From Escherichia coli (GTDB lineage Bacteria > Pseudomonadota > Gammaproteobacteria > Enterobacterales > Enterobacteriaceae), in the NCBI RefSeq assembly GCF_003334335.1, contig NZ_QOWQ01000021.1: 64,000 nt of DNA, one strand, 5' to 3'. A model generated the notes under the pieces. The model was not told the origin of the DNA. It did no database searches and was given only the letters and a program-made list of their open reading frames with translations. The position numbers were made by a program, and so were the translations under genes. Shown here one piece after another: positions 9,161-42,726 of this stretch. Each line of letters begins with the position of its first letter. Position 1 is the stretch's first letter.

Positions 9161-9290
9161 GGCTTACTCTTCCCGCTTCGCTATGAGGTTATAAACCCCG
9201 CTGATCGGGTCATACCATATGCTGCGTGGCAGCAGCTTCTGGAAGTAGCGCGGATCTGGCATTACGGTTGACTGTTGTGACATGTCACAC

Positions 9291-9491
9291 CTAACTATTT
9301 GTTTTCCGTAATGGAGAAAAAATGAGGCTCTCTTTAGATAATTTGAGGGTTGGTGAAACTTTAGATACCGCTTCCTCAATTCTTTCAGCCATTGCAACTG
9401 AGGGGCGCCTAAAACCCAGAGCCATCTGGTTCAGGTATGCAACGCTAGTCCCAGATAACTGTGCCAGCCGCCTCCATTCATCCGCGCTCAT
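9291..9491 (-). CDS. Cro-like HTH regulator (start taken at the internal Met, MSADEW...)
   Basis: HTH-like segment LAQLSGTSVAYLNQMALGFRRPS; divergent from the cI-like gene across a 138-bp operator region. Confidence 0.6.
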   Translation of the reverse strand: MSADEWRRLAQLSGTSVAYLNQMALGFRRPSVAMAERIEEAVSKVSPTLKLSKESLIFSPLRKTNS

Positions 9492-9549
9492 GACTCCTCT
9501 GATTGAGAGCAATACACTGGACATAAAAAACCCCATACTGTATTGGTTA

Positions 9550-9572
9550 TTAGCAACGTGCTAACATTAGCA
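9550..9572. promoter_or_regulatory. Candidate operator: overlapping inverted repeats TTAGCA-acg-TGCTAA-ca-TTAGCA in the cro/cI divergent region
   Basis: Perfect 6-bp half-sites in inverted orientation; a related site TTAGCA-ttt-TGCTAt lies at 10118-10136 upstream of the next HTH gene. Confidence 0.55.
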
Positions 9573-9629
9573 CATGAGATCACAATACAGCAATACGCTG
9601 TAAAGCATTTAGCTAACAATGAGACAAGC

Positions 9630-10085
9630 ATGGAAATCAAAGATATTCGCTTAAAAAATCTACAGACGGTAATCCAACGCAGCGGCTTAACCCAGACAGA
9701 TCTGGCGTTAAAATGTGAGATATCACCCTCACTTATAAGCCAAATAATGACTAAGCGCAGAAATATGGGAACTGCTCTCGCTAGAAAACTCGAGGGGCGA
9801 CTGAGCCTATCAGAAGGATGGTTTGACATCCCCCACTCATTGCTGGATTCCCCATGGCATCTAGCTAAAATGAGGGAAAAGACTGGTGAGACCACTATTG
9901 ATGAACAGCAACTAACTAAAAGAGAGACTCGACTTATTGAGTTATTCAGACAAATGCCTGAAAGCGAAAAAGACAGGATAATCAGTGAGTTATCTGAAAA
10001 GAAACGTAATTTTGACAAACTACTTGATGAGCTAATGGCTGTTAAAGCATCAAGAATGCCGATCGACAAAGACGAAAATGAATAA
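9630..10085 (+). CDS. cI-like immunity repressor (XRE-family HTH, no S24 peptidase domain)
   Basis: HTH LTQTDLALKCEISPSLISQIM; C-terminal half is acidic/coiled and lacks the Ser-Lys autocleavage motifs; start at ATG 9630 (the track ORF begins upstream at 9543). Confidence 0.7.
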   Translation: MEIKDIRLKNLQTVIQRSGLTQTDLALKCEISPSLISQIMTKRRNMGTALARKLEGRLSLSEGWFDIPHSLLDSPWHLAKMREKTGETTIDEQQLTKRETRLIELFRQMPESEKDRIISELSEKKRNFDKLLDELMAVKASRMPIDKDENE

Positions 10086-10188
10086 TAAATACAACGCACT
10101 ATAAAAAAAACAGCAAACATTAGCATTTTGCTATTGTCAAGAATAACGCATAGCGCTACATTCACCTCAGCAAGTAAAAACAAGTGAG

Positions 10189-10641
10189 GTGAATGTAATG
10201 TTAAATGATAAACATGACTCTTATTCCGTAAACTCTCTGTTGATTTGTGCTCAAGCGGCACTATTAGGCGGTACCGCTTCAAACCATGACGTCATCAACC
10301 TCTTAGATGTTGCACAAGACATCATCTCTTCAACTATGAATTCCTTTACAGATAGTAGCGCTCCCGGCGCTAATGTTGATTTATTTACCAAAGAAGTTAG
10401 CGCTAGTAATTCCCCAGCATTATCTTTCGGTCAACGTATTCTCCAAGCGCGTAAATCAGCAAGTCTTCAACAACATCATATTGCCAGCGGTGCTGGAGTG
10501 ACTGTTCAGGCTGTTTCGTTATGGGAAAATGACTCAGCAATTCCTACTTGCGACAAAATTATCCCATTGGCAAATCTTCTTGGCTGCGATCCAATGTGGT
10601 TACTGACTGGTGCTTATAAACAAAATCAGGAGGAAGCATAA
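10189..10641 (+). CDS. Second HTH (XRE-family) protein with an N-terminal domain of unknown function
   Basis: C-terminal HTH FGQRILQARKSASLQQHHIASGAGVTVQAVSLWE; exact start uncertain. Confidence 0.55.
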   Translation: MNVMLNDKHDSYSVNSLLICAQAALLGGTASNHDVINLLDVAQDIISSTMNSFTDSSAPGANVDLFTKEVSASNSPALSFGQRILQARKSASLQQHHIASGAGVTVQAVSLWENDSAIPTCDKIIPLANLLGCDPMWLLTGAYKQNQEEA

Positions 10642-10642
10642 G

Positions 10643-10834
10643 ATGAAAATGTTCAAAGGCCTCACCAACGAACCGGAGACAGCTTTTCATCACATTGCCG
10701 TACTGCTTGAAGCGGGGTTAATCATTTCGGCTTCCGGTGATGAAGAATGTGATGAACTTTCGGATGATATCTTTTTACTGGCACAACAATACGCCAGAAG
10801 CGCATGCGATGCATTTAAGGAGCAAAGAACATGA
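10643..10834 (+). CDS. Small hypothetical protein (63 aa)
   Basis: AGGAGG 7 nt upstream of the ATG; stop overlaps the next start. Confidence 0.5.
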   Translation: MKMFKGLTNEPETAFHHIAVLLEAGLIISASGDEECDELSDDIFLLAQQYARSACDAFKEQRT

Positions 10835-11022
10835 TAACTCCATTAAATATTCTTGAGGAAGTGGCGGCACAAATAAAAGAGAATACATCAATGCTTGAAT
10901 TTATATTTAAGAATTCGCCCGACCAAGGAGAGACAGACGATTATTTATGCTGTCTCATTCGCTCCATGAATAAGACCTGTGAAATGGCTTACGAGTATAT
11001 AGAAACACTACGCAACGAATAA
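10831..11022 (+). CDS. Small hypothetical protein (63 aa)
   Basis: Start overlaps the stop of the upstream gene. Confidence 0.45.
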   Translation: MITPLNILEEVAAQIKENTSMLEFIFKNSPDQGETDDYLCCLIRSMNKTCEMAYEYIETLRNE

Positions 11023-11206
11023 AGAACACTCAGTAAAAAATCACACATAAAAACATGACGGCCTCTGGTCGTGGATTTCCACAACCAGAAAATAATGGTG
11101 ATGCATGAAAAATAGAAACGCTTATAAAACCGCATTATTAATGGCTAATGCAGGATACTGGTCAGTTGCAATACTGTTTCTCAGAAAAGCATACGGGAAA
11201 TAACAA

Positions 11207-11566
11207 ATGGCATGTACAACCATTTATAAAGATCGTCGCCGCATGGTAACAGCGGCACTCCGGCGGATGCAACGTAAAACAGGTAGTAATCTGCTCGTCG
11301 TTGACCTCCCGGACGGAGAAATAACAACGATAGAAATAACTGAACAGTTCATGAACCAGTTGTTATTACGATTTGAGGGTCTTACCCGTGTTGAATATGG
11401 ACGGACGGAAGGAGAAGCAACAATCCGTACCGCATACCAGAATGCCATCGGTATTAATCAACACACGGAATATCTCACTGAATCAGGGAAACTGATAGTG
11501 GACGGCCTTTTAAAAGAGGTTGTTGACTACGTAAAAGAGAAATATATCAGTGGAGGAATTAACTGA
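11207..11566 (+). CDS. Hypothetical phage protein (119 aa)
   Basis: ORF in the plus-strand accessory operon. Confidence 0.5.
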   Translation: MACTTIYKDRRRMVTAALRRMQRKTGSNLLVVDLPDGEITTIEITEQFMNQLLLRFEGLTRVEYGRTEGEATIRTAYQNAIGINQHTEYLTESGKLIVDGLLKEVVDYVKEKYISGGIN

Positions 11567-11746
11567 TGTCTGATTTATCCCCTCTTATACACGAAAAAGT
11601 ACAGATCATTATGACGATTGAAAATGGCCAAGTCACAGGTGTCTGCAAAGTCCGCGATGGCTAGCTGATTGCCAGCATGGATACATTCATACGGCTGGCA
11701 GAAAGAGCGGGGTATCAGATAACAGCACCAGCTCAGGAGGAAACCA

Positions 11747-11965
11747 GTGGCATTAACAGCAACACGCATTCCTGAGCGGATCCACCGGCAGGCATTGCAG
11801 GTCCTGTTGTTGTACCGATGCCGACGGATATTTCCGCATCGGATACAGCGCACCGGATATCTCAGTCTGAAGGTTAACCGTCGCTGGCGGCTGTTATCGA
11901 AAGACGACGGCCGGAACTGGGAAGTAATGAGTCATGAACGTTATTCGGGAGAAATAAAGAAATGA
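11747..11965 (+). CDS. DUF4222-like small phage protein (GTG start)
   Basis: RWRLLSKDDGRNWEVMSHERY motif, also present in a paralog in the second prophage (61966-62193); AGGAGG upstream. Confidence 0.55.
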   Translation: MALTATRIPERIHRQALQVLLLYRCRRIFPHRIQRTGYLSLKVNRRWRLLSKDDGRNWEVMSHERYSGEIKK

Positions 11966-12360
11966 TCGACAACCGCACCGCCAGCGCCAGCGCCATTAAC
12001 CAGGCATTACAGAAACATGATACACCCGTCGGCCCGTTATTTTTTGTAACACGCCACGGAAGAACAAAAAAATGCCTCACTCGAAAAACGGCAATTCGTT
12101 ACCTGGCCTTCTTTATGACCACCCGCGCTTTTGAACGTTCAGGATTCCGACAACGCCATCCTGACAAGCGTTTTATCTTCAACGGGAATGAAATATGGAA
12201 ACGTGGAGAATCAACCACAGAGTATACCCGCGCACACCAGCGAACAATCAGACGACTGCGCAGACTCATCGCCAGGAAACAGTATACAGAAAAATGGTTC
12301 AGAAAATATGACACATGGAGCGCCGGATATTACGAACTGATGGCAACAAAACCATTCTGA
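11962..12360 (+). CDS. Hypothetical basic phage protein (132 aa)
   Basis: Start overlaps the upstream stop; Arg/Lys-rich. Confidence 0.5.
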   Translation: MIDNRTASASAINQALQKHDTPVGPLFFVTRHGRTKKCLTRKTAIRYLAFFMTTRAFERSGFRQRHPDKRFIFNGNEIWKRGESTTEYTRAHQRTIRRLRRLIARKQYTEKWFRKYDTWSAGYYELMATKPF

Positions 12361-12420
12361 CGTAAACGAAATTAACCATGACGCAATTAAATAAGGCAAG
12401 CCGAATACATCAGGAGGACC

Positions 12421-12609
12421 ATGAACATTTATTTCAGAATAGTTATATCACTGGCAATTATCACATGTATTTACGGATTAATCGTTCCGGCCCTCATATC
12501 AATGAAGGATACGGTAGCAGTGATTTCTGGCTTTGCTCTGGCGTGTCTGACCCCGCCCTGCATTTATGCCATTTATAAGGGTCTTTCTTTTTCTAAGGAT
12601 AAAAGATGA
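12421..12609 (+). CDS. Small two-helix membrane protein (62 aa), translationally coupled to the SPFH gene
   Basis: Two hydrophobic segments; its stop overlaps the SPFH start (ATGA). Confidence 0.55.
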   Translation: MNIYFRIVISLAIITCIYGLIVPALISMKDTVAVISGFALACLTPPCIYAIYKGLSFSKDKR

Positions 12610-13433
12610 AAAAATTACTTTTTGCTTTAGCCCTTGTTCTGCCGACCATTGGCCTTGTCGGTTGCGATCGCGTTGAGCCTGGTAATGTGGGCATCAAAGT
12701 AAACAAACTGGGCGACGATAAAGGCGTCGGTGAAGTGGTCGGTGTTGGGCGCTACTGGACGGGATGGAACACTGAGGTTTACATCTTCCCGACCTTTAAG
12801 CAGATGAAGACCTACGATGATCCATTCAGTTTCCAGATGAGTGACGGTACAACCATCGGCTATCACATCGGCGTGGCCTACAAAGTTGATCCATCCAAAG
12901 TTACCACAGTCTTTCAGACCTACCGCAAAGGCGTGGACGACATTACCGACACCGACCTGCGCCAGAAGATAGCCGACGCACTCAACCGACTGGCCAGCAA
13001 AATGACCACCGACAAATTTATCGACGGCGGCAAGTCTGAGCTGCTGGATGCAGCTCTTAAAGACATTCAGGAAGAAATGACGCCCATCGGTATTCAGGTA
13101 ATGAGCCTCTCATATGTGGGTAAGCCGGAGTACCCGCCTACTGTTATCGACAGCATTAATGCCAAAGTCACGGCGAACCAGAAAACCCTGCAACGCGAGC
13201 AGGAAGTAAAACAGCGCGAAGCGGAAGCCAACATGTTGCGCGCGGAAGCTGCCGGACAGGCAGATGCGATTCGCACAAAAGCCCAGGCCGAAGCCGATGC
13301 TATTCGTTTACGCGGTGAAGCTCTGCGCCAGAACCCCGGTGTTATGGAGCTGGAAGCCATCAACAAGTGGAACGGTACACTGCCGCAATACATGACCAGC
13401 GGTGCCAACACACCATTTATTCAGGTTAAGTAA
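12606..13433 (+). CDS. SPFH/band-7 (prohibitin/HflKC-like) lipoprotein with C-terminal coiled coil
   Basis: Signal peptide with lipobox LVGC; SPFH-like core; Ala/Glu/Arg-rich heptad region QREAEANMLRAEAAGQADAIR. Confidence 0.7.
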   Translation: MKKLLFALALVLPTIGLVGCDRVEPGNVGIKVNKLGDDKGVGEVVGVGRYWTGWNTEVYIFPTFKQMKTYDDPFSFQMSDGTTIGYHIGVAYKVDPSKVTTVFQTYRKGVDDITDTDLRQKIADALNRLASKMTTDKFIDGGKSELLDAALKDIQEEMTPIGIQVMSLSYVGKPEYPPTVIDSINAKVTANQKTLQREQEVKQREAEANMLRAEAAGQADAIRTKAQAEADAIRLRGEALRQNPGVMELEAINKWNGTLPQYMTSGANTPFIQVK

Positions 13434-13476
13434 TACATATGCCCGGTATTACACGCCGGGCTGTCTGGAGATAAAA

Positions 13477-14226
13477 ATGAATATTGTAACCATCAACAAC
13501 AAACAGTTTCCGGTAATCGAATATCGCGGTCAGCGTGTTGTGACATTTGCAATGATTGATGACGTCCACCAGCGCCCGGAAGGTACCGCCCGTGCTGCGT
13601 TTAACCGCAACCGTTCTCACTTTATCGAAGGGGTGGATTTTCTTGAAATGACTGCGGACGTAATACGTACGGAGTCACTTTCTGATGCCTTTGCCGCGCG
13701 AACTGCCAAAGGGATCATTCTTTTCGAGTCTGGTTACCTGATGTTGACGAAGCCTTTTAACGATGCTCTTGCATGGCAGGTTCAGCGCGAACTGGTTAAC
13801 AGCTATTTCCGAACTCATGCGCCGCTGACGGAAATGGAGATGATCGCTGCAATGGCCGCCGATGCCGTTCGCCAGCAGAAGCGCCTGAGTCATGTTGAAG
13901 AGAAGATCGAAACGGTCACCAAAGCTGTGGAGAACATCAAACGCGGCACAATGCGCACTGGATATGTCGGTTACCGCCAGGTGGTAGCCAAAAGCGGAAT
14001 GAGTGACGCCAAGTGTCGGAATCTGGTCAACGCCTACCACATCCCTACCGACACGCACGAATTTATGACTCCGGACGGTCTGTTGTCTCGCAGGGCTGTC
14101 GTCGAGCTTGAGACATTTATGGCGGCGTTCCACCAAATGATGTCAGAGGCTGAACCACGCGGCACACGCTGGTATCACCCGAAGATGGGGCTTTTCCAGG
14201 TAATCGGATGGGAGGATAAAGCATGA
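13477..14226 (+). CDS. Bro-N/ORF6N-domain protein (antirepressor-like)
   Basis: N-terminus INNKQFPVIEYRGQRVVTFAMIDDVHQRPEGTARAAFNRN resembles the Bro-N/ORF6N family; start taken at ATG 13477. Confidence 0.55.
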   Translation: MNIVTINNKQFPVIEYRGQRVVTFAMIDDVHQRPEGTARAAFNRNRSHFIEGVDFLEMTADVIRTESLSDAFAARTAKGIILFESGYLMLTKPFNDALAWQVQRELVNSYFRTHAPLTEMEMIAAMAADAVRQQKRLSHVEEKIETVTKAVENIKRGTMRTGYVGYRQVVAKSGMSDAKCRNLVNAYHIPTDTHEFMTPDGLLSRRAVVELETFMAAFHQMMSEAEPRGTRWYHPKMGLFQVIGWEDKA

Positions 14227-14792
14227 TCATCCAGTCAAAACTTATTCGCGCCGCTCTGGTGTGCGCTGCTAAAAACGACGTTCGTTATTACCTGAACGGT
14301 CTTCACATCACGCCAAAACATATTGAGGCAACCAATGGTTCCGTGGCACTGCGCATGACTCACGGCATCCGGACGAAGAAAAACATCATTGTCCAGTTCG
14401 AAGGTGGCGTCCCGGCCAAAGCCGAAACGACAGAGCTGATTTTTAGTAAAGAGCCGATCGCTGTTCATCGCGACCAGTTTCAGCGCCGACTGTCCATTAC
14501 CGGCATTAAATTGGTGGACGGTTGTTTTCCGGATTTGGAACGCATCATTCCGAAAAAATTTGACCTCTGTACACACCCGGTGATCCAGGCGGGTTACCTG
14601 AGTTATCCAGAGAAGATGTTTGGTCGTGAGCGTAAATTTATTCCCGTCCAGTTACGTCCCTCCGGTGACGGGCAAGCGGTCAGAATTCAGTTTGATTCCA
14701 TCATCAACTCAATGTATGGCAATCCTGAATTTGTTGTGATGCCTTGTCGTGATCATGGCGATTTCAATGTGGCTCAGGAGCATCCGGAATGA
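14223..14792 (+). CDS. Hypothetical phage protein (189 aa)
   Basis: ORF with start overlapping the upstream stop. Confidence 0.5.
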   Translation: MIIQSKLIRAALVCAAKNDVRYYLNGLHITPKHIEATNGSVALRMTHGIRTKKNIIVQFEGGVPAKAETTELIFSKEPIAVHRDQFQRRLSITGIKLVDGCFPDLERIIPKKFDLCTHPVIQAGYLSYPEKMFGRERKFIPVQLRPSGDGQAVRIQFDSIINSMYGNPEFVVMPCRDHGDFNVAQEHPE

Positions 14793-14824
14793 AAATCGAA
14801 TACCAGGACGCCGCAGGAGGTGAA

Positions 14825-14911
14825 TCAATGAGCTGGCCTGATGCAATCGTAACTCTGGGGATGGTATTCGCAGTAGCGTTTGTTGTGTACTCGATTTGTC
14901 GATGGGGATAA
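14825..14911 (+). CDS. Candidate small single-TM peptide (27 aa, MSWPDAIVTLGMVFAVAFVVYSICRWG)
   Basis: AGGAGG 7 nt upstream of the ATG; hydrophobic core; below the ORF-track size cut-off. Confidence 0.35.
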   Translation, partial: SMSWPDAIVTLGMVFAVAFVVYSICRWG

Positions 14912-14915
14912 CCAC

Positions 14916-15158
14916 ATGTTCGCTTTGATTCAACGCGGGCAGATATACACCGATAGTGCTGGCTACCCGATAAAAATTGTTCGCTGCATAAACAACACTG
15001 TGTTGTACAGAAGAATGGATGGGCGAACACAGTCAGTAAAAATAAACGATTTCAATGAACTGTTTGAACGGATTGATCACCAGGAATACCGACAAATTCT
15101 GGCAGAAACAGAGCAGGAAGCTCATCTGAAAAAATTACGGGCCATGAAAAGGAAGTAA
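14916..15158 (+). CDS. Hypothetical small phage protein (80 aa)
   Basis: ORF from MFALIQRGQIY. Confidence 0.45.
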   Translation: MFALIQRGQIYTDSAGYPIKIVRCINNTVLYRRMDGRTQSVKINDFNELFERIDHQEYRQILAETEQEAHLKKLRAMKRK

Positions 15159-15316
15159 AGAATGAATAAAGCATTTGAACAATGGGTCCACCAGCGTTAC
15201 GGCAATCGCTATGACCTGACACGAGATGTTGACGGTTTCTACTGTCGTGAAATTGTGAAACGAATGTTTGAAGTGTGGTGCCACTGCCGTGGGCTGAGTG
15301 TTGTGTGAGGTAATGC

Positions 15317-15553
15317 ATGGGCAATGTGATTCAACTGGCTCCCAATGAATGGGTTTGTGAAAGCGTTCTAATCGCAATTACCGGGCTCAAACCAGGCACA
15401 ATTCTTCGGGCCCGGAAAGAATGCTGGATGGTTGGAAGAGAGTATATTCACGTATCACCAGACGGTAATCCAAAGCCTTCCAGTGAATGTATGTATAACA
15501 GAAAAGCAATAGATGCCTGGGTCGCTTCAATGAAAAACAAACAACCTGGGTGA
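15317..15553 (+). CDS. xis: Excisionase-like DNA-binding protein
   Basis: 78-aa ORF directly upstream of the integrase on the same strand. Confidence 0.55.
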   Translation: MGNVIQLAPNEWVCESVLIAITGLKPGTILRARKECWMVGREYIHVSPDGNPKPSSECMYNRKAIDAWVASMKNKQPG

Positions 15554-15608
15554 TTTAATGCCATGAAGTATGTAAGCTCGTATCGCTCTTGGGCGTCTGG
15601 AGGTATCA

Positions 15609-16922
15609 ATGGATAAAGTCAAATATCCAACAGGCGTCGAAAACCACGGCGGCACATTACGCATCTGGTTTAATTTTAAAGGTAAACGTGTCAGGGAAAA
15701 TCTTGGTGTCCCTGACACTGCCAAGAACAGGAAGATCGCCGGGGAACTGCGGACATCGGTATGTTTTGCCATCCGCACAGGAAGCTTTGATTATGCTGCA
15801 CAGTTCCCTGACTCCCCCAACCTTCAGGCTTTTGGGGTAAGTAAAAAAGAAATTACGGTGAAGGAACTTGAAGAAAAGTGGCTGGATCTGAAACGAATGG
15901 AAATCTCTGCAAATGCATTCAATCGCTATGAATCCGTTGCAAGAACGATGGTTTCGAAAATTGGAGGCAGTAGACTGGTGTCATCGGTAACCAAAGAGGA
16001 ATTGCTGTATATCAGGAAAGATTTGCTAACCGGGTATCAGAATTCAACGAAAAACAAAGCAGCAGCAAAAGGACGGAGCGTCGTTACTGTAAATTATTAC
16101 ATGACGACAATCGCTGGAATGTTTCAGTTTGCTGCAGATCACGGTTACTTAGAAGCAAATCCCTTCCAGGGAATTAAGCCTCTTAAAAGAGCCAGGGCAG
16201 AGCCAGATCCGCTAACTCGTGACGAATTTATTCGCCTGATAGATGCTTGCCGACATCAGCAGACGAAAAACCTGTGGTCATTGGCTGTGTACACAGGAAT
16301 GCGTCACGGTGAACTGGTCTCCCTGGCCTGGGAAGATATCGATCTGAAGGCAGGAACAATTACCATCAGGCGCAATTATACGAAACTTGGTGAGTTCACT
16401 CTACCGAAAACTGAAGCAAGCACAAACAGGGTTGTGCACCTTATCCAGCCCGCTATCAGTGTCCTGAAAAATCAGGCTGAAATGACAAGACTGGGTAAGC
16501 AGTACAACATCAAGGTGCAACTACGTGAATATGGACGTTCAGTGAACCATGAATGTACTTTCGTGTTTAACCCTCAAGTGGTTAGAAAAAGCGAACAGGT
16601 AGGTTTTGTCTACAAAGTCGATTCTGTAGGTGACTCATGGGAAACAGCCATTAAGCGTGCAGGGATCAGGCATCGAAAGGCATACCAGTCACGACACACT
16701 TATGCGTGCTGGTCATTATCTGCCGGAGCAAACCCAAGCTTCATTGCCAGCCAGATGGGCCATGCAAGTGCCCAGATGGTATTCAATGTATACGGAGCAT
16801 GGATGACTGACAGCAATGCAGAACAGATCGCAATGCTGAATCAGAAGCTGACAGATTATGTCCCAATGATGCCCCATAGTCACCAAAGTGACACCAGAGG
16901 CTTATTAAAATCAGTAAGTTAA
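15609..16922 (+). CDS. int: Tyrosine-type phage integrase
   Basis: GGAGG RBS; catalytic-region motifs TGMRHGEL, HRKAYQSRHT, VYGAW; ends at the prophage/yecE junction. Confidence 0.85.
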   Translation: MDKVKYPTGVENHGGTLRIWFNFKGKRVRENLGVPDTAKNRKIAGELRTSVCFAIRTGSFDYAAQFPDSPNLQAFGVSKKEITVKELEEKWLDLKRMEISANAFNRYESVARTMVSKIGGSRLVSSVTKEELLYIRKDLLTGYQNSTKNKAAAKGRSVVTVNYYMTTIAGMFQFAADHGYLEANPFQGIKPLKRARAEPDPLTRDEFIRLIDACRHQQTKNLWSLAVYTGMRHGELVSLAWEDIDLKAGTITIRRNYTKLGEFTLPKTEASTNRVVHLIQPAISVLKNQAEMTRLGKQYNIKVQLREYGRSVNHECTFVFNPQVVRKSEQVGFVYKVDSVGDSWETAIKRAGIRHRKAYQSRHTYACWSLSAGANPSFIASQMGHASAQMVFNVYGAWMTDSNAEQIAMLNQKLTDYVPMMPHSHQSDTRGLLKSVS

Positions 16923-16939
16923 TCCTTAATACCCGTCAT

Positions 16940-17674
16940 GTTAACTGCGTGGAGGGCAACACCACGCTTTACGCCCTGCCGAAACCCGAGGTTGTCCTGC
17001 GCTGGCGTGAACAGACCACAGATGACTTCCGCTTCTGTTTTAAGTTTCCGGCGACCATTTCGCATCAGGCAGCATTACGGCATTGCGATGATTTAGTGAC
17101 TGAATTTTTGACCCGCATGTCACCGTTGGCTCCGCGCATTGGGCAATACTGGCTGCAACTGCCTGCCACATTCGGCCCACGGGAGCTGCCTGCGCTTTGG
17201 CATTTTCTCGATTCTCTCCCTGGCGAATTTAATTATGGTGTGGAAGTCCGCCATCCACAGTTTTTCGCCAAAGGGGAAGAGGAACAAACGCTTAATCGCG
17301 GTTTACATCAGCGCGGCGTTAATCGGGTGATTTTAGACAGCCGCCCGGTTCATGCAGCATGTCCACACAGTGAAGCTATTCGCGACGCTCAACGAAAAAA
17401 ACCTAAAGTTCCGGTACATGCTGTACTGACGGAGACAAATCCGCTGATCCGTTTTATCGGTAGTGATGATATGACGCAAAACCGGGAATTATTTCAGGTC
17501 TGGTTACAGAAATTAGCGCAGTGGCATCAGACCACTACGCCTTATCTTTTTTTACATACGCCAGACATTGCCCTGGCCCCGGAACTGGTACATACCCTGT
17601 GGGAAGACTTACGTAAAACGCTTCCAGAGATCGGAGCAGTTCCGGCTATTCCACAGCAATCTTCTCTTTTCTGA
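16940..17674 (+). pseudogene. yecE: yecE (DUF72) 3' portion; first ~30 codons displaced by the prophage junction
   Basis: Translation from ...NCVEGNTTLYALPKPEVV matches YecE from about residue 30; no native 5' end in this window. Confidence 0.7.
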
Positions 17675-42600: not shown

Positions 42601-42726
42601 GACATCATCCTTCCACTGTTGACCATGACAGGATGTTCAGTCGTCAGGCGTTAACGCGCGATTGGGGCAAAAAAAAGCAGCGGTACGTCGTTACCGCTGC
42701 TGGAATGTTGCGCCTCACCGTATCAG

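Follow-up and report, generated by a model that had tools for sequence, protein, structure and literature searches.

The locus described here raises the question of how a lambdoid prophage is induced when its immunity repressor carries no domain for self-cleavage. The prophage lies in a 64,000-nucleotide stretch of Escherichia coli DNA (from contig NZ_QOWQ01000021.1; the whole stretch is called the window in the following). Positions 1 to ~16,930 represent its regulatory and integration arm, inserted beside the host gene yecE, such that ~17 kb of the prophage fall within the window. A first-pass annotation had described the repressor (9630-10085, plus strand) as a helix-turn-helix (HTH) protein without S24 peptidase motifs. 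It had further proposed that induction might work through a Bro-N/ORF6N-domain protein encoded at 13477-14226 (plus strand), acting as an antirepressor. We find that this idea was right in kind but wrong in candidate. In particular, we consider it fairly probable that the repressor is of a non-cleavable type that is controlled by small Rem-type antirepressors, that the prophage's own copy of such an antirepressor gene (11566-11781) is broken, and that the ORF6N gene is an ordinary early gene.

The timing of lambdoid prophage induction in E. coli decides phage release, gene transfer and, for relatives carrying Shiga toxin (Stx) genes, toxin output. The present case ties a CI-type repressor without peptidase domain to the antirepression class known from the Gifsy prophages and DicA. 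The component of interest becomes a small Rem-family gene and not the larger gene labelled 'anti-repressor'.

The repressor and its class

In a Pfam search the repressor of 151 amino acids (aa) matched HTH families alone (HTH_3/PF01381, residues 16-65, E 3.4e-5). The profile search for Peptidase_S24 that had been recommended in the first-pass annotation gave no match. The sequence contains neither an Ala-Gly nor a Cys-Gly dipeptide, no GDSM motif and no Ser/Lys dyad. An AlphaFold model based on 18 homologues was wholly helical without any beta strand, with five short helices followed by a linker that is disordered (residues 71-92) and a pair of helices spanning residues 97-142. The best match in the PDB, by sequence (E 4.4e-4) as well as by fold, was to chains of 5d50, the SPC32H Rep-Ant complex, while no S24 structure appeared among the 50 fold matches listed. 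A cryptic S24 domain was rejected on the negative outcome of Pfam, the structure model and the fold search. The 24 full-length homologues all measure 149-166 aa, with no domain other than PF01381 in any of them. Translation starts from the ATG at 9630: M1 is invariant in the family alignment, and the NCBI Prokaryotic Genome Annotation Pipeline (PGAP) calls the same 456-nt gene in relatives. Because an S24 domain, a cleavage site and an S24 fold are all lacking, RecA-stimulated self-cleavage appears very unlikely from sequence and model, as had been suspected.

Short repressors of this kind have been described before. Lambdoid repressors of ~150 aa (GfoR, GtgR, DicA, RacR) are not cleaved on induction but are released from DNA by small antirepressors (PMC3121763), and homologues of this repressor class were found in most E. 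coli genomes then available (Lemire et al. 2011, PMC3121763). Like the repressor of the window, Gifsy-2 GtgR (antirepressors GftA and FsoA) and Gifsy-1/3 GfoR/GfhR (antirepressors GfoA/GfhA) are short (~140-150 aa), have an N-terminal HTH and lack a cleavage site. Against GtgR we obtained 25% identity over residues 6-118 (pairwise E 5e-7). The C-terminal helices of the repressor contain the strongly conserved motif E-x-RL-x-ELFRQMPESEK...KLLDEL, and GtgR reads EETLLSLFNQLPEAEKLRVI at the corresponding place, so that both have LF-x-Q-(L/M)-PE-x-EK in common; with DicA included, the common motif becomes E-x-x-L-x-x-LF-x-x-(L/M)-PE-x-E-(K/Q). The two prophages are also alike in their lambdoid layout and in containing a small gene of an antirepressor family.

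A second point of comparison is the DicA/DicC/Rem system of the Qin prophage in E. coli K-12 (Ragunathan et al. 2023, PMC10448788). DicA has a similar C-terminal helical domain (40% identity over 45 residues by BLASTP) and is likewise faced by a divergent cro-like gene. The C-terminal 45-55 residues of the repressor matched the DicA model NCBIfam NF007257 with E 3.6e-10 and 39.8 bits, which is below the cut-off of 101. The N-terminal 71 residues showed 39% identity to the cI DNA-binding domains of H-19B, mEp506 and many Stx1a phages, and the HTH is closer to H-19B-type cI than to DicA. For the non-cleavable SPC32H Rep (5d50), which was solved in complex with an antirepressor, only the N-terminal ~90 residues match the repressor (E 4e-4). 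By its length (~135-160 aa in the class), its HTH and its lack of a cleavage site, we assign the repressor to the GtgR/GfoR/DicA class of short non-cleavable lambdoid repressors; on sequence grounds it is related to DicA and GtgR but is the equivalog of neither. The missing S24 domain is real and is accounted for by an already known repressor class.

Cleavable repressors of the lambda CI/LexA type perform the same job from the same gene position, and sister prophages carry one in exactly this slot (see below); unlike these, the repressor of the window has no S24 domain, Ala-Gly site or Ser/Lys dyad. We also considered identity with the 'Clade VIII' CI of Stx phages (Fagerlund et al. 2022, PMC8951638), a protein in the CI position of E. 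coli lambdoid/Eru-type prophages that also lacks a peptidase domain and whose inactivation was called unexplored. This identity appears unlikely, as the published description gives Clade VIII an additional HTH domain, whereas the repressor of the window has one.

Operators, early-left operon and cassette exchange

The palindrome TTAGCA-N3-TGCTAA with at most one mismatch occurs twice in the 64 kb of the window, compared to 0.13 copies expected, and both copies flank the repressor gene. The first one (OR, 9550-9564) is the perfect palindrome TTAGCAACGTGCTAA and is positioned between the repressor gene and a divergent cro-like gene. The second one (OL, 10120-10134, TTAGCATTTTGCTAT) is located 35 bp past the repressor stop and overlaps the -35 hexamer of a PL-type promoter. 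A weaker copy with three mismatches is found at 9602-9616. The cro-like gene (9291-9536, minus strand) is an 81-aa open reading frame (ORF) for a small HTH protein with weak matches to PHROG repressor families; its true start may be internal, and a divergent gene of 76-97 aa is called at this position in homologous loci.

We compared these sites with the loci of repressor homologues from E. kobei (83% identity), a metagenome (60%), Salmonella (55%) and Pantoea (52%). Every homologous cassette, including those with as little as 52% identity, had an OR-type site that preceded the repressor ATG by ~80 bp. The OL 15-mer was identical in the E. kobei, Salmonella, Pantoea and metagenome homologues, 16-35 bp past the repressor stop. 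Sister prophages with other (S24) immunity cassettes lack TTAGCA-N3-TGCTAA operators. We take the palindromes flanking the repressor gene to be its predicted operators at both early promoters. Separately, the cassette contains a perfect 14-bp palindrome (TGTGACATGTCACA, 9276-9289) immediately beyond the stop of the cro-like gene, to which one of the cassette regulators might bind.

The promoter scan placed the PL-type promoter at 10134-10162 on the plus strand (TTGTCA, 17 nt, TACATT). TACATT and the TTG of the -35 hexamer are invariant in five aligned cassettes, and TACATT is found in all 10 cassettes of this type. From the repressor gene to PL the scan showed no terminator-like site, and from PL to position 13477 no promoter-like site on the plus strand; the genes are closely packed from 10198 to int. 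Since the repressor stop is separated from the next gene by a conserved operator and a promoter-like site, the ORF6N gene is best placed in a repressor-controlled early-left (PL-type) operon. It had been assigned to the same operon as the repressor, of which the common strand holds but the common transcription unit does not. Nor is its position unusual, as had been thought: it is predicted to be an ordinary early-left position as known from lambda, P22, Qin and Fels-1. In lambda, cI and the PL operon are co-directional and PL follows just past the repressor transcription unit, which is the arrangement seen here too, and the dicA gene is likewise co-directional with the operon that DicA represses.

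Relatives of this prophage are common. Among complete E. coli genomes, 19 contain at least 80% of the region 9200-14300 at ~97% identity. A blastn comparison with strain SCU-106 (locus L011) revealed a sharply bounded exchange: the window and SCU-106 share 99.7-99.9% identity in the flanks 8001-9133 and 10559-17000, while nothing matches in between. The immunity cassette so defined (9134-10558, 1,425 bp) comprises the cro-like gene, the repressor gene, the operators, the PL-type promoter and the first 120 codons of the next gene, which encodes a second HTH protein. In SCU-106 it is replaced by unrelated DNA with a 'LexA family protein', an own cro-like gene and an own second HTH protein. Phage phi467 has the same cassette boundaries as SCU-106, and in the repressor slot it encodes a 229-aa S24 protein with the signature RGDSMAPT...YVKRL. 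Three unrelated cassettes thus swap at the same two junctions of a backbone that is otherwise 94-99.9% identical. Sequence comparison indicates that cassettes with cleavable and with non-cleavable repressors have been exchanged on one backbone. As a consequence, close prophage relatives may respond very differently to DNA-damaging antibiotics.

The right junction (10558) falls inside the second HTH gene (10198-10641, plus strand; 147 aa, phrog_4836), the first gene of the early-left operon, such that residues 1-120 belong to the swapped block and the last 27 to the conserved backbone. Its HTH resembles the DNA-binding domain of P22 C2, and the protein is widespread in Stx1a and Stx2a phages. 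A type-specific version of it heads the early-left operon in every cassette type, whether the repressor there is cleavable or not. We therefore list it, by sequence, as what appears to be a third immunity-specific regulator. We found no characterised homologue; records name it 'transcriptional regulator', 'putative CII repressor' or similar.

A strong RNA hairpin (10157-10197, plus strand; 13-bp stem, dG -23.1 kcal/mol, z -7.3) precedes the gene. The 5' arm begins with the PL -10 hexamer; the Shine-Dalgarno sequence is enclosed in the 3' arm, which extends right up to the ATG. An RNA starting at 10170 was predicted to be unstructured. The stem is kept in 10 of 10 cassettes of this type, including a compensatory change from ACC/GGT to TTT/AAA, and comparable hairpins, judged by eye, stand ahead of the equivalent gene in both S24 cassettes (SCU-106 and phi467). 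Read-through RNA from the repressor gene may accordingly be translationally silent for the second HTH gene, with translation occurring only from PL-initiated mRNA.

These features allow for another explanation, in which the second HTH protein counteracts the repressor by operator competition or in mixed oligomers. It is exchanged together with the repressor in every cassette type, its translation seems gated against read-through transcripts by the conserved hairpin, and its gene follows that of the repressor in 16 of 16 homologous loci (loci with a repressor homologue and enough downstream sequence, of which several are closely related, so that counts among them are not independent). Yet the protein accompanies S24-type repressors too, which need no such factor, and its gene sits behind the repressed promoter and would not be the trigger. 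With no characterised homologue to support it, we regard this role as highly improbable.

Two candidate antirepressor genes

K-12 Rem and a Salmonella Rem-like protein, used as queries against the prophage, led to a small gene at 11566-11781 (plus strand), inside the interval that the first-pass annotation had covered but overlooked by it. In relatives the same position encodes an intact protein of 69-71 aa; WP_000002323.1 is an example of an intact Rem-family allele. The intact orthologue (E 1.8e-24), K-12 Rem (4.4e-21) and the Salmonella Rem-like protein (2.1e-17) all match phrog_340, so that K-12 Rem and the orthologue fall into one PHROG family. A profile search of the Rem-like family gave 330 relatives, some of which, 82-86% identical to the intact orthologue, have a precomputed match to PF27490 (Rem). 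Our own Pfam search of the small gene and its family returned no match, but that Pfam copy did not detect K-12 Rem either and is uninformative here.

The family can be linked to the Gifsy-type antirepressors via Fels-1. STM0898.2n of this prophage (78 aa) scored 72.8 bits against the family profile and lies inside the mapped fsoA interval; from this position we take it to be fsoA. It follows a 119-aa gene (STM0898.3n) that is homologous to the gene preceding the Rem-family gene in the window (11207-11566, plus strand, phrog_1737), i.e. the synteny is exact. For GftA we used the gene that the Gifsy-2 record shows between dinI and an irsA homologue; its profile match was weak and covered the conserved core (E 8e-4 in a search of four sequences). 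A tblastn search with the Fels-1 protein reached no Gifsy records. A model of the Rem-family protein consists of a beta-hairpin and one helix (mean predicted local distance difference test score, pLDDT, 76.7); it had no significant fold match in the PDB, including the 5d50 (SPC32H) chains, and the PDB sequence search was likewise empty. From these matches 11566-11781 is classified as a member of the Rem/GftA/GfoA/FsoA family of small antirepressors.

In the window this gene is, by alignment, a pseudogene. DNA alignment with relatives identified a single G-to-T change that converts GAG to an in-frame TAG at 11662-11664. The stop codon replaces the nearly invariant Glu35 and removes the whole C-terminal helix. 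The TAG allele is common to the window and SCU-106, while the gene is intact in FDAARGOS_1304, STEC799 and phi467. No second Rem-family gene was found elsewhere in the 64-kb window. Among the 16 repressor loci, 14 contain a Rem-family gene. The gene begins within the stop codon region of the left-operon gene before it, with an overlap of start and stop, so that it probably has no promoter of its own.

The likeness to the characterised systems is partial in each case. In the Gifsy prophages the antirepressor gene belongs to a LexA-controlled dinI-ant-irsA unit outside the immunity region (PMC3121763), whereas in the prophage of the window no LexA box or dinI unit was found and the family member stands, broken, in the left operon. 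Qin differs in being a defective prophage and in having rem at the opposite side of the immunity region, at a distance of 3.6 kb from dicBF. Closest is fsoA of Fels-1, which also resides in the early-left operon directly after the homologous 119-aa gene and under the control of the phage's own repressor rather than LexA. Here the difference is that FsoR is a cleavable S24 repressor and FsoA hits the repressor of another prophage (PMC3121763), while the repressor of the window is itself non-cleavable and its Rem-family gene carries a stop codon.

The other candidate is the ORF6N gene (13477-14226). Of the Bro-N/ORF6N assignment made before, the second half was supported: the 249-aa protein contains an ORF6N domain (PF10543, residues 13-92, E 5.6e-13), and Pfam gave no match to Bro-N (PF02498). 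Could this protein, in the way P22 Ant acts on C2, bind the non-cleavable repressor and thereby drive or lock in induction? Several of the PHROG families that it matches, phrog_1726 (E 1.3e-70) and phrog_63 ('Ant', E 1.6e-15) among them, are labelled 'anti-repressor'. In addition, the 268-aa 'anti-repressor' family phrog_4792 matches the ORF6N protein with its N-terminal part (profile 8-124) and the Rem-family protein with its C-terminal part (198-238). Fusions of ORF6N-like and Rem-like modules therefore exist, and the two modules can be linked. The labels are, however, annotation names with no functional test behind them, and a literature search found no paper reporting a tested function of an ORF6N protein. 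More generally, 'anti-repressor' on ORF6N, Bro-N and KilA-type proteins should be read as a family name and not as functional evidence.

Two further properties of the ORF6N protein also speak against such a role: no solved structure is related to it by sequence, and its C-terminal half (residues 116-246, 13822-14214; phrog_6610) is not Rem-like. Neither a P22 nor a P1 record was among the tblastn matches listed. The C-terminal half is 70-76% identical to the C-terminal halves of proteins from Stx1a and Stx2a phages, phiP27 and D6, which are annotated 'DNA-binding protein' or 'anti-repressor Ant' (the latter in phiP27 and D6). The reuse of the C-terminal half is consistent with a shuffling of such modules, which Iyer, Koonin and Aravind reportedly described in 2002.

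The genomic context points in the same direction. In SCU-106 an ORF6N gene with 100% nucleotide identity stands on the same yecE prophage backbone beside the LexA-family repressor, and in phi467 an 83%-identical ORF6N protein occurs together with the S24 repressor. Within the 16 repressor loci the gene is present in 8, absent from 7 and doubtful in one. Finally, since it is placed behind the repressor-controlled PL-type promoter, it cannot initiate induction. Judged by this distribution, the ORF6N gene is a backbone early gene common to sisters with LexA-like repressors and not a dedicated partner of this repressor. Its action as an antirepressor of this repressor is not convincing, and we rate it as quite unlikely.

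For the reading as a whole this means that induction via an antirepressor, the route proposed at first, agrees with what is established for the class (GtgR/GfoR, PMC3121763; DicA, PMC10448788), but not with ORF6N in that role. In our assessment the Rem-family gene is the better antirepressor candidate. We favour it because of the experimental precedent for its family and not because of its distribution. GftA, GfoA and FsoA each displace from DNA the repressor to which they bind (PMC3121763), and Rem derepresses the DicA-controlled promoter dicBp 165-fold (PMC10448788).

Induction and the remaining prophage genes

The following sequence of events would be in agreement with these data. An oligomer of the repressor would bind TTAGCA-N3-TGCTAA on both sides of its own gene and thereby shut both the rightward cro/replication operon and the leftward PL-type operon. 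The latter would run from the second HTH gene via the Rem-family gene, the SPFH gene, the ORF6N gene and the clamp-like gene to xis and int. Repressors of this class would come off DNA once bound by a small Rem/GftA/GfoA/FsoA-type antirepressor; that the Rem-family protein binds this particular repressor is what we infer from its family. Being under the control of the repressor and not of LexA, an intact Rem-family gene could at best amplify a switch that has already begun, reinforcing derepression once PL fires. In the prophage of the window even this copy appears to be destroyed by the nonsense mutation.

What, then, could start induction? Since the repressor is non-cleavable and the visible part of the prophage shows neither a LexA-controlled unit nor a functional antirepressor gene, we infer a trigger that comes from outside or arises spontaneously. 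Most likely, antirepressors would be supplied in trans by co-resident prophages, as from Fels-1 to Gifsy-2, where FsoR controls fsoA in the Fels-1 left operon and FsoA takes effect on the other prophage (PMC3121763), or else the repressor/Cro switch would flip in rare cells, spontaneously or driven by stress, as in DicA/DicC. For the latter system ~1% of cells derepress dicBp spontaneously, and urea and high temperature are inducers as well; the spontaneous and the stress effect are both independent of Rem and depend on DicC (PMC10448788).

The same precedent supports an explanation that involves no antirepressor at all, in which the repressor/Cro switch flips spontaneously or under stress and the repressor is unstable or degraded by host proteases. 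The divergent cro-like gene, the lack of a LexA box and the broken Rem-family gene would all fit, and the conserved acidic C-terminal tail of the repressor family could conceivably act as a degradation signal. However, Rem-family genes are intact in 13 of the other 15 repressor loci, suggesting that antirepression matters in the lineage, and we consider this explanation unlikely.

An antirepressor under LexA control, as in Gifsy, 186 or N15, was rejected, as neither the prophage part of the window nor the STEC799 sister prophage yielded a LexA box. A search of the window for CTGT-N8-ACAG returned one site, at 42616, far outside the prophage. With a LexA position-weight matrix the best site in the prophage part (16085, inside int) scored 12.7, less than the weakest training box (13.3). 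In the complete STEC799 sister prophage no LexA box was convincing; the best one, with a score of 15.0, lay in an accessory region near the far end.

Taken further, the prophage might be a pure 'listener' that has neither of the known DNA-damage sensors, has lost its own left-operon antirepressor and is induced only by the cross-reacting Rem-family antirepressor of a co-resident SOS-inducible prophage, with a third, immunity-specific HTH regulator whose translation is gated by the hairpin at the PL promoter. We put this combination forward as a tentative possibility that may well not hold in all its parts.

Several observations weigh against the favoured explanation of a non-cleavable repressor with Rem-type antirepression. 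The similarity to DicA is confined to the C-terminal 45-55 residues and the identity to GtgR is just 25%. Two of the repressor loci (L005 and L023) have no Rem-family gene within reach. Moreover, Rem-family genes are found also with S24-type cassettes, so that they are no more repressor-specific than the ORF6N gene, and the contact between Rem-family protein and repressor enters the argument by analogy. The PHROG labels of the ORF6N families count on the same side. So does the broad range of P22 Ant, which acts on many unrelated repressors, cleavable ones among them (PMC3121763): the occurrence of ORF6N beside S24 repressors is hence not decisive and is compatible with a broad Ant-like role. 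Regarding the LexA search, for which the matrix was built from 16 E. coli boxes, a LexA-controlled antirepressor could be encoded in the prophage part outside the window.

The question of induction would be moot if the prophage were defective and the repressor merely silenced remnant early genes, as in Qin or Rac. One regulatory gene is already a pseudogene, and the window contains only part of the element. In the phage collection searched no record has a full-length repressor homologue; matches cover either its N-terminal or its C-terminal part. Against this, int, xis and the genes of the repressor, helicase, primase and Q are all intact in the window, STEC799 contains a full-length sister prophage with the same cassette and complete lysis, head and tail genes, and 10 IMG/VR viral contigs encode the repressor at 82-100% identity. 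We give this explanation hardly any weight.

The remaining genes of the arm follow the lambdoid order. On the minus strand we find a Q-like antiterminator (4138-4953), a toprim primase (5810-6778), a DEAD-box helicase (6780-8438) and a small phrog_852 gene (8852-9160) ahead of the cro-like gene. On the plus strand the ORF6N gene is followed in its operon by a gene for a beta-clamp-like protein (14223-14792), named 'beta clamp domain-containing protein' by PGAP in relatives. The operon ends with the excisionase gene xis (15317-15553) and the tyrosine integrase gene int (15609-16922), next to which the host genes yecE (16949-17674) and then yecN are located.

Within the early-left operon, where a series of small genes comes after the second HTH gene, a 62-aa membrane protein and an SPFH-domain lipoprotein (12606-13433) are encoded as accessory genes at 12421-13433 on the plus strand. 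The SPFH lipoprotein gene has 86-91% nucleotide identity to genes in records of P1-like phages and plasmid-prophages and in phage P88; together with the adjoining membrane protein gene it looks like a mobile accessory component of the operon. A small ORF (11747-11965), annotated 'ParE family toxin-like protein' in relatives, overlaps the 3' end of the Rem-family gene, and an antitoxin partner is not evident. In the STEC799 sister prophage the lysis cassette includes a gene with a P22_AR_N-type 'phage antirepressor N-terminal domain' (L010 19480-20049), flanked by the lysozyme and Rz-like genes, which gives this prophage lineage a further gene with an antirepressor label. A P22_AR_N gene, of which the 5' end is present, also comes after the lysis genes at locus L006 of E. 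kobei.

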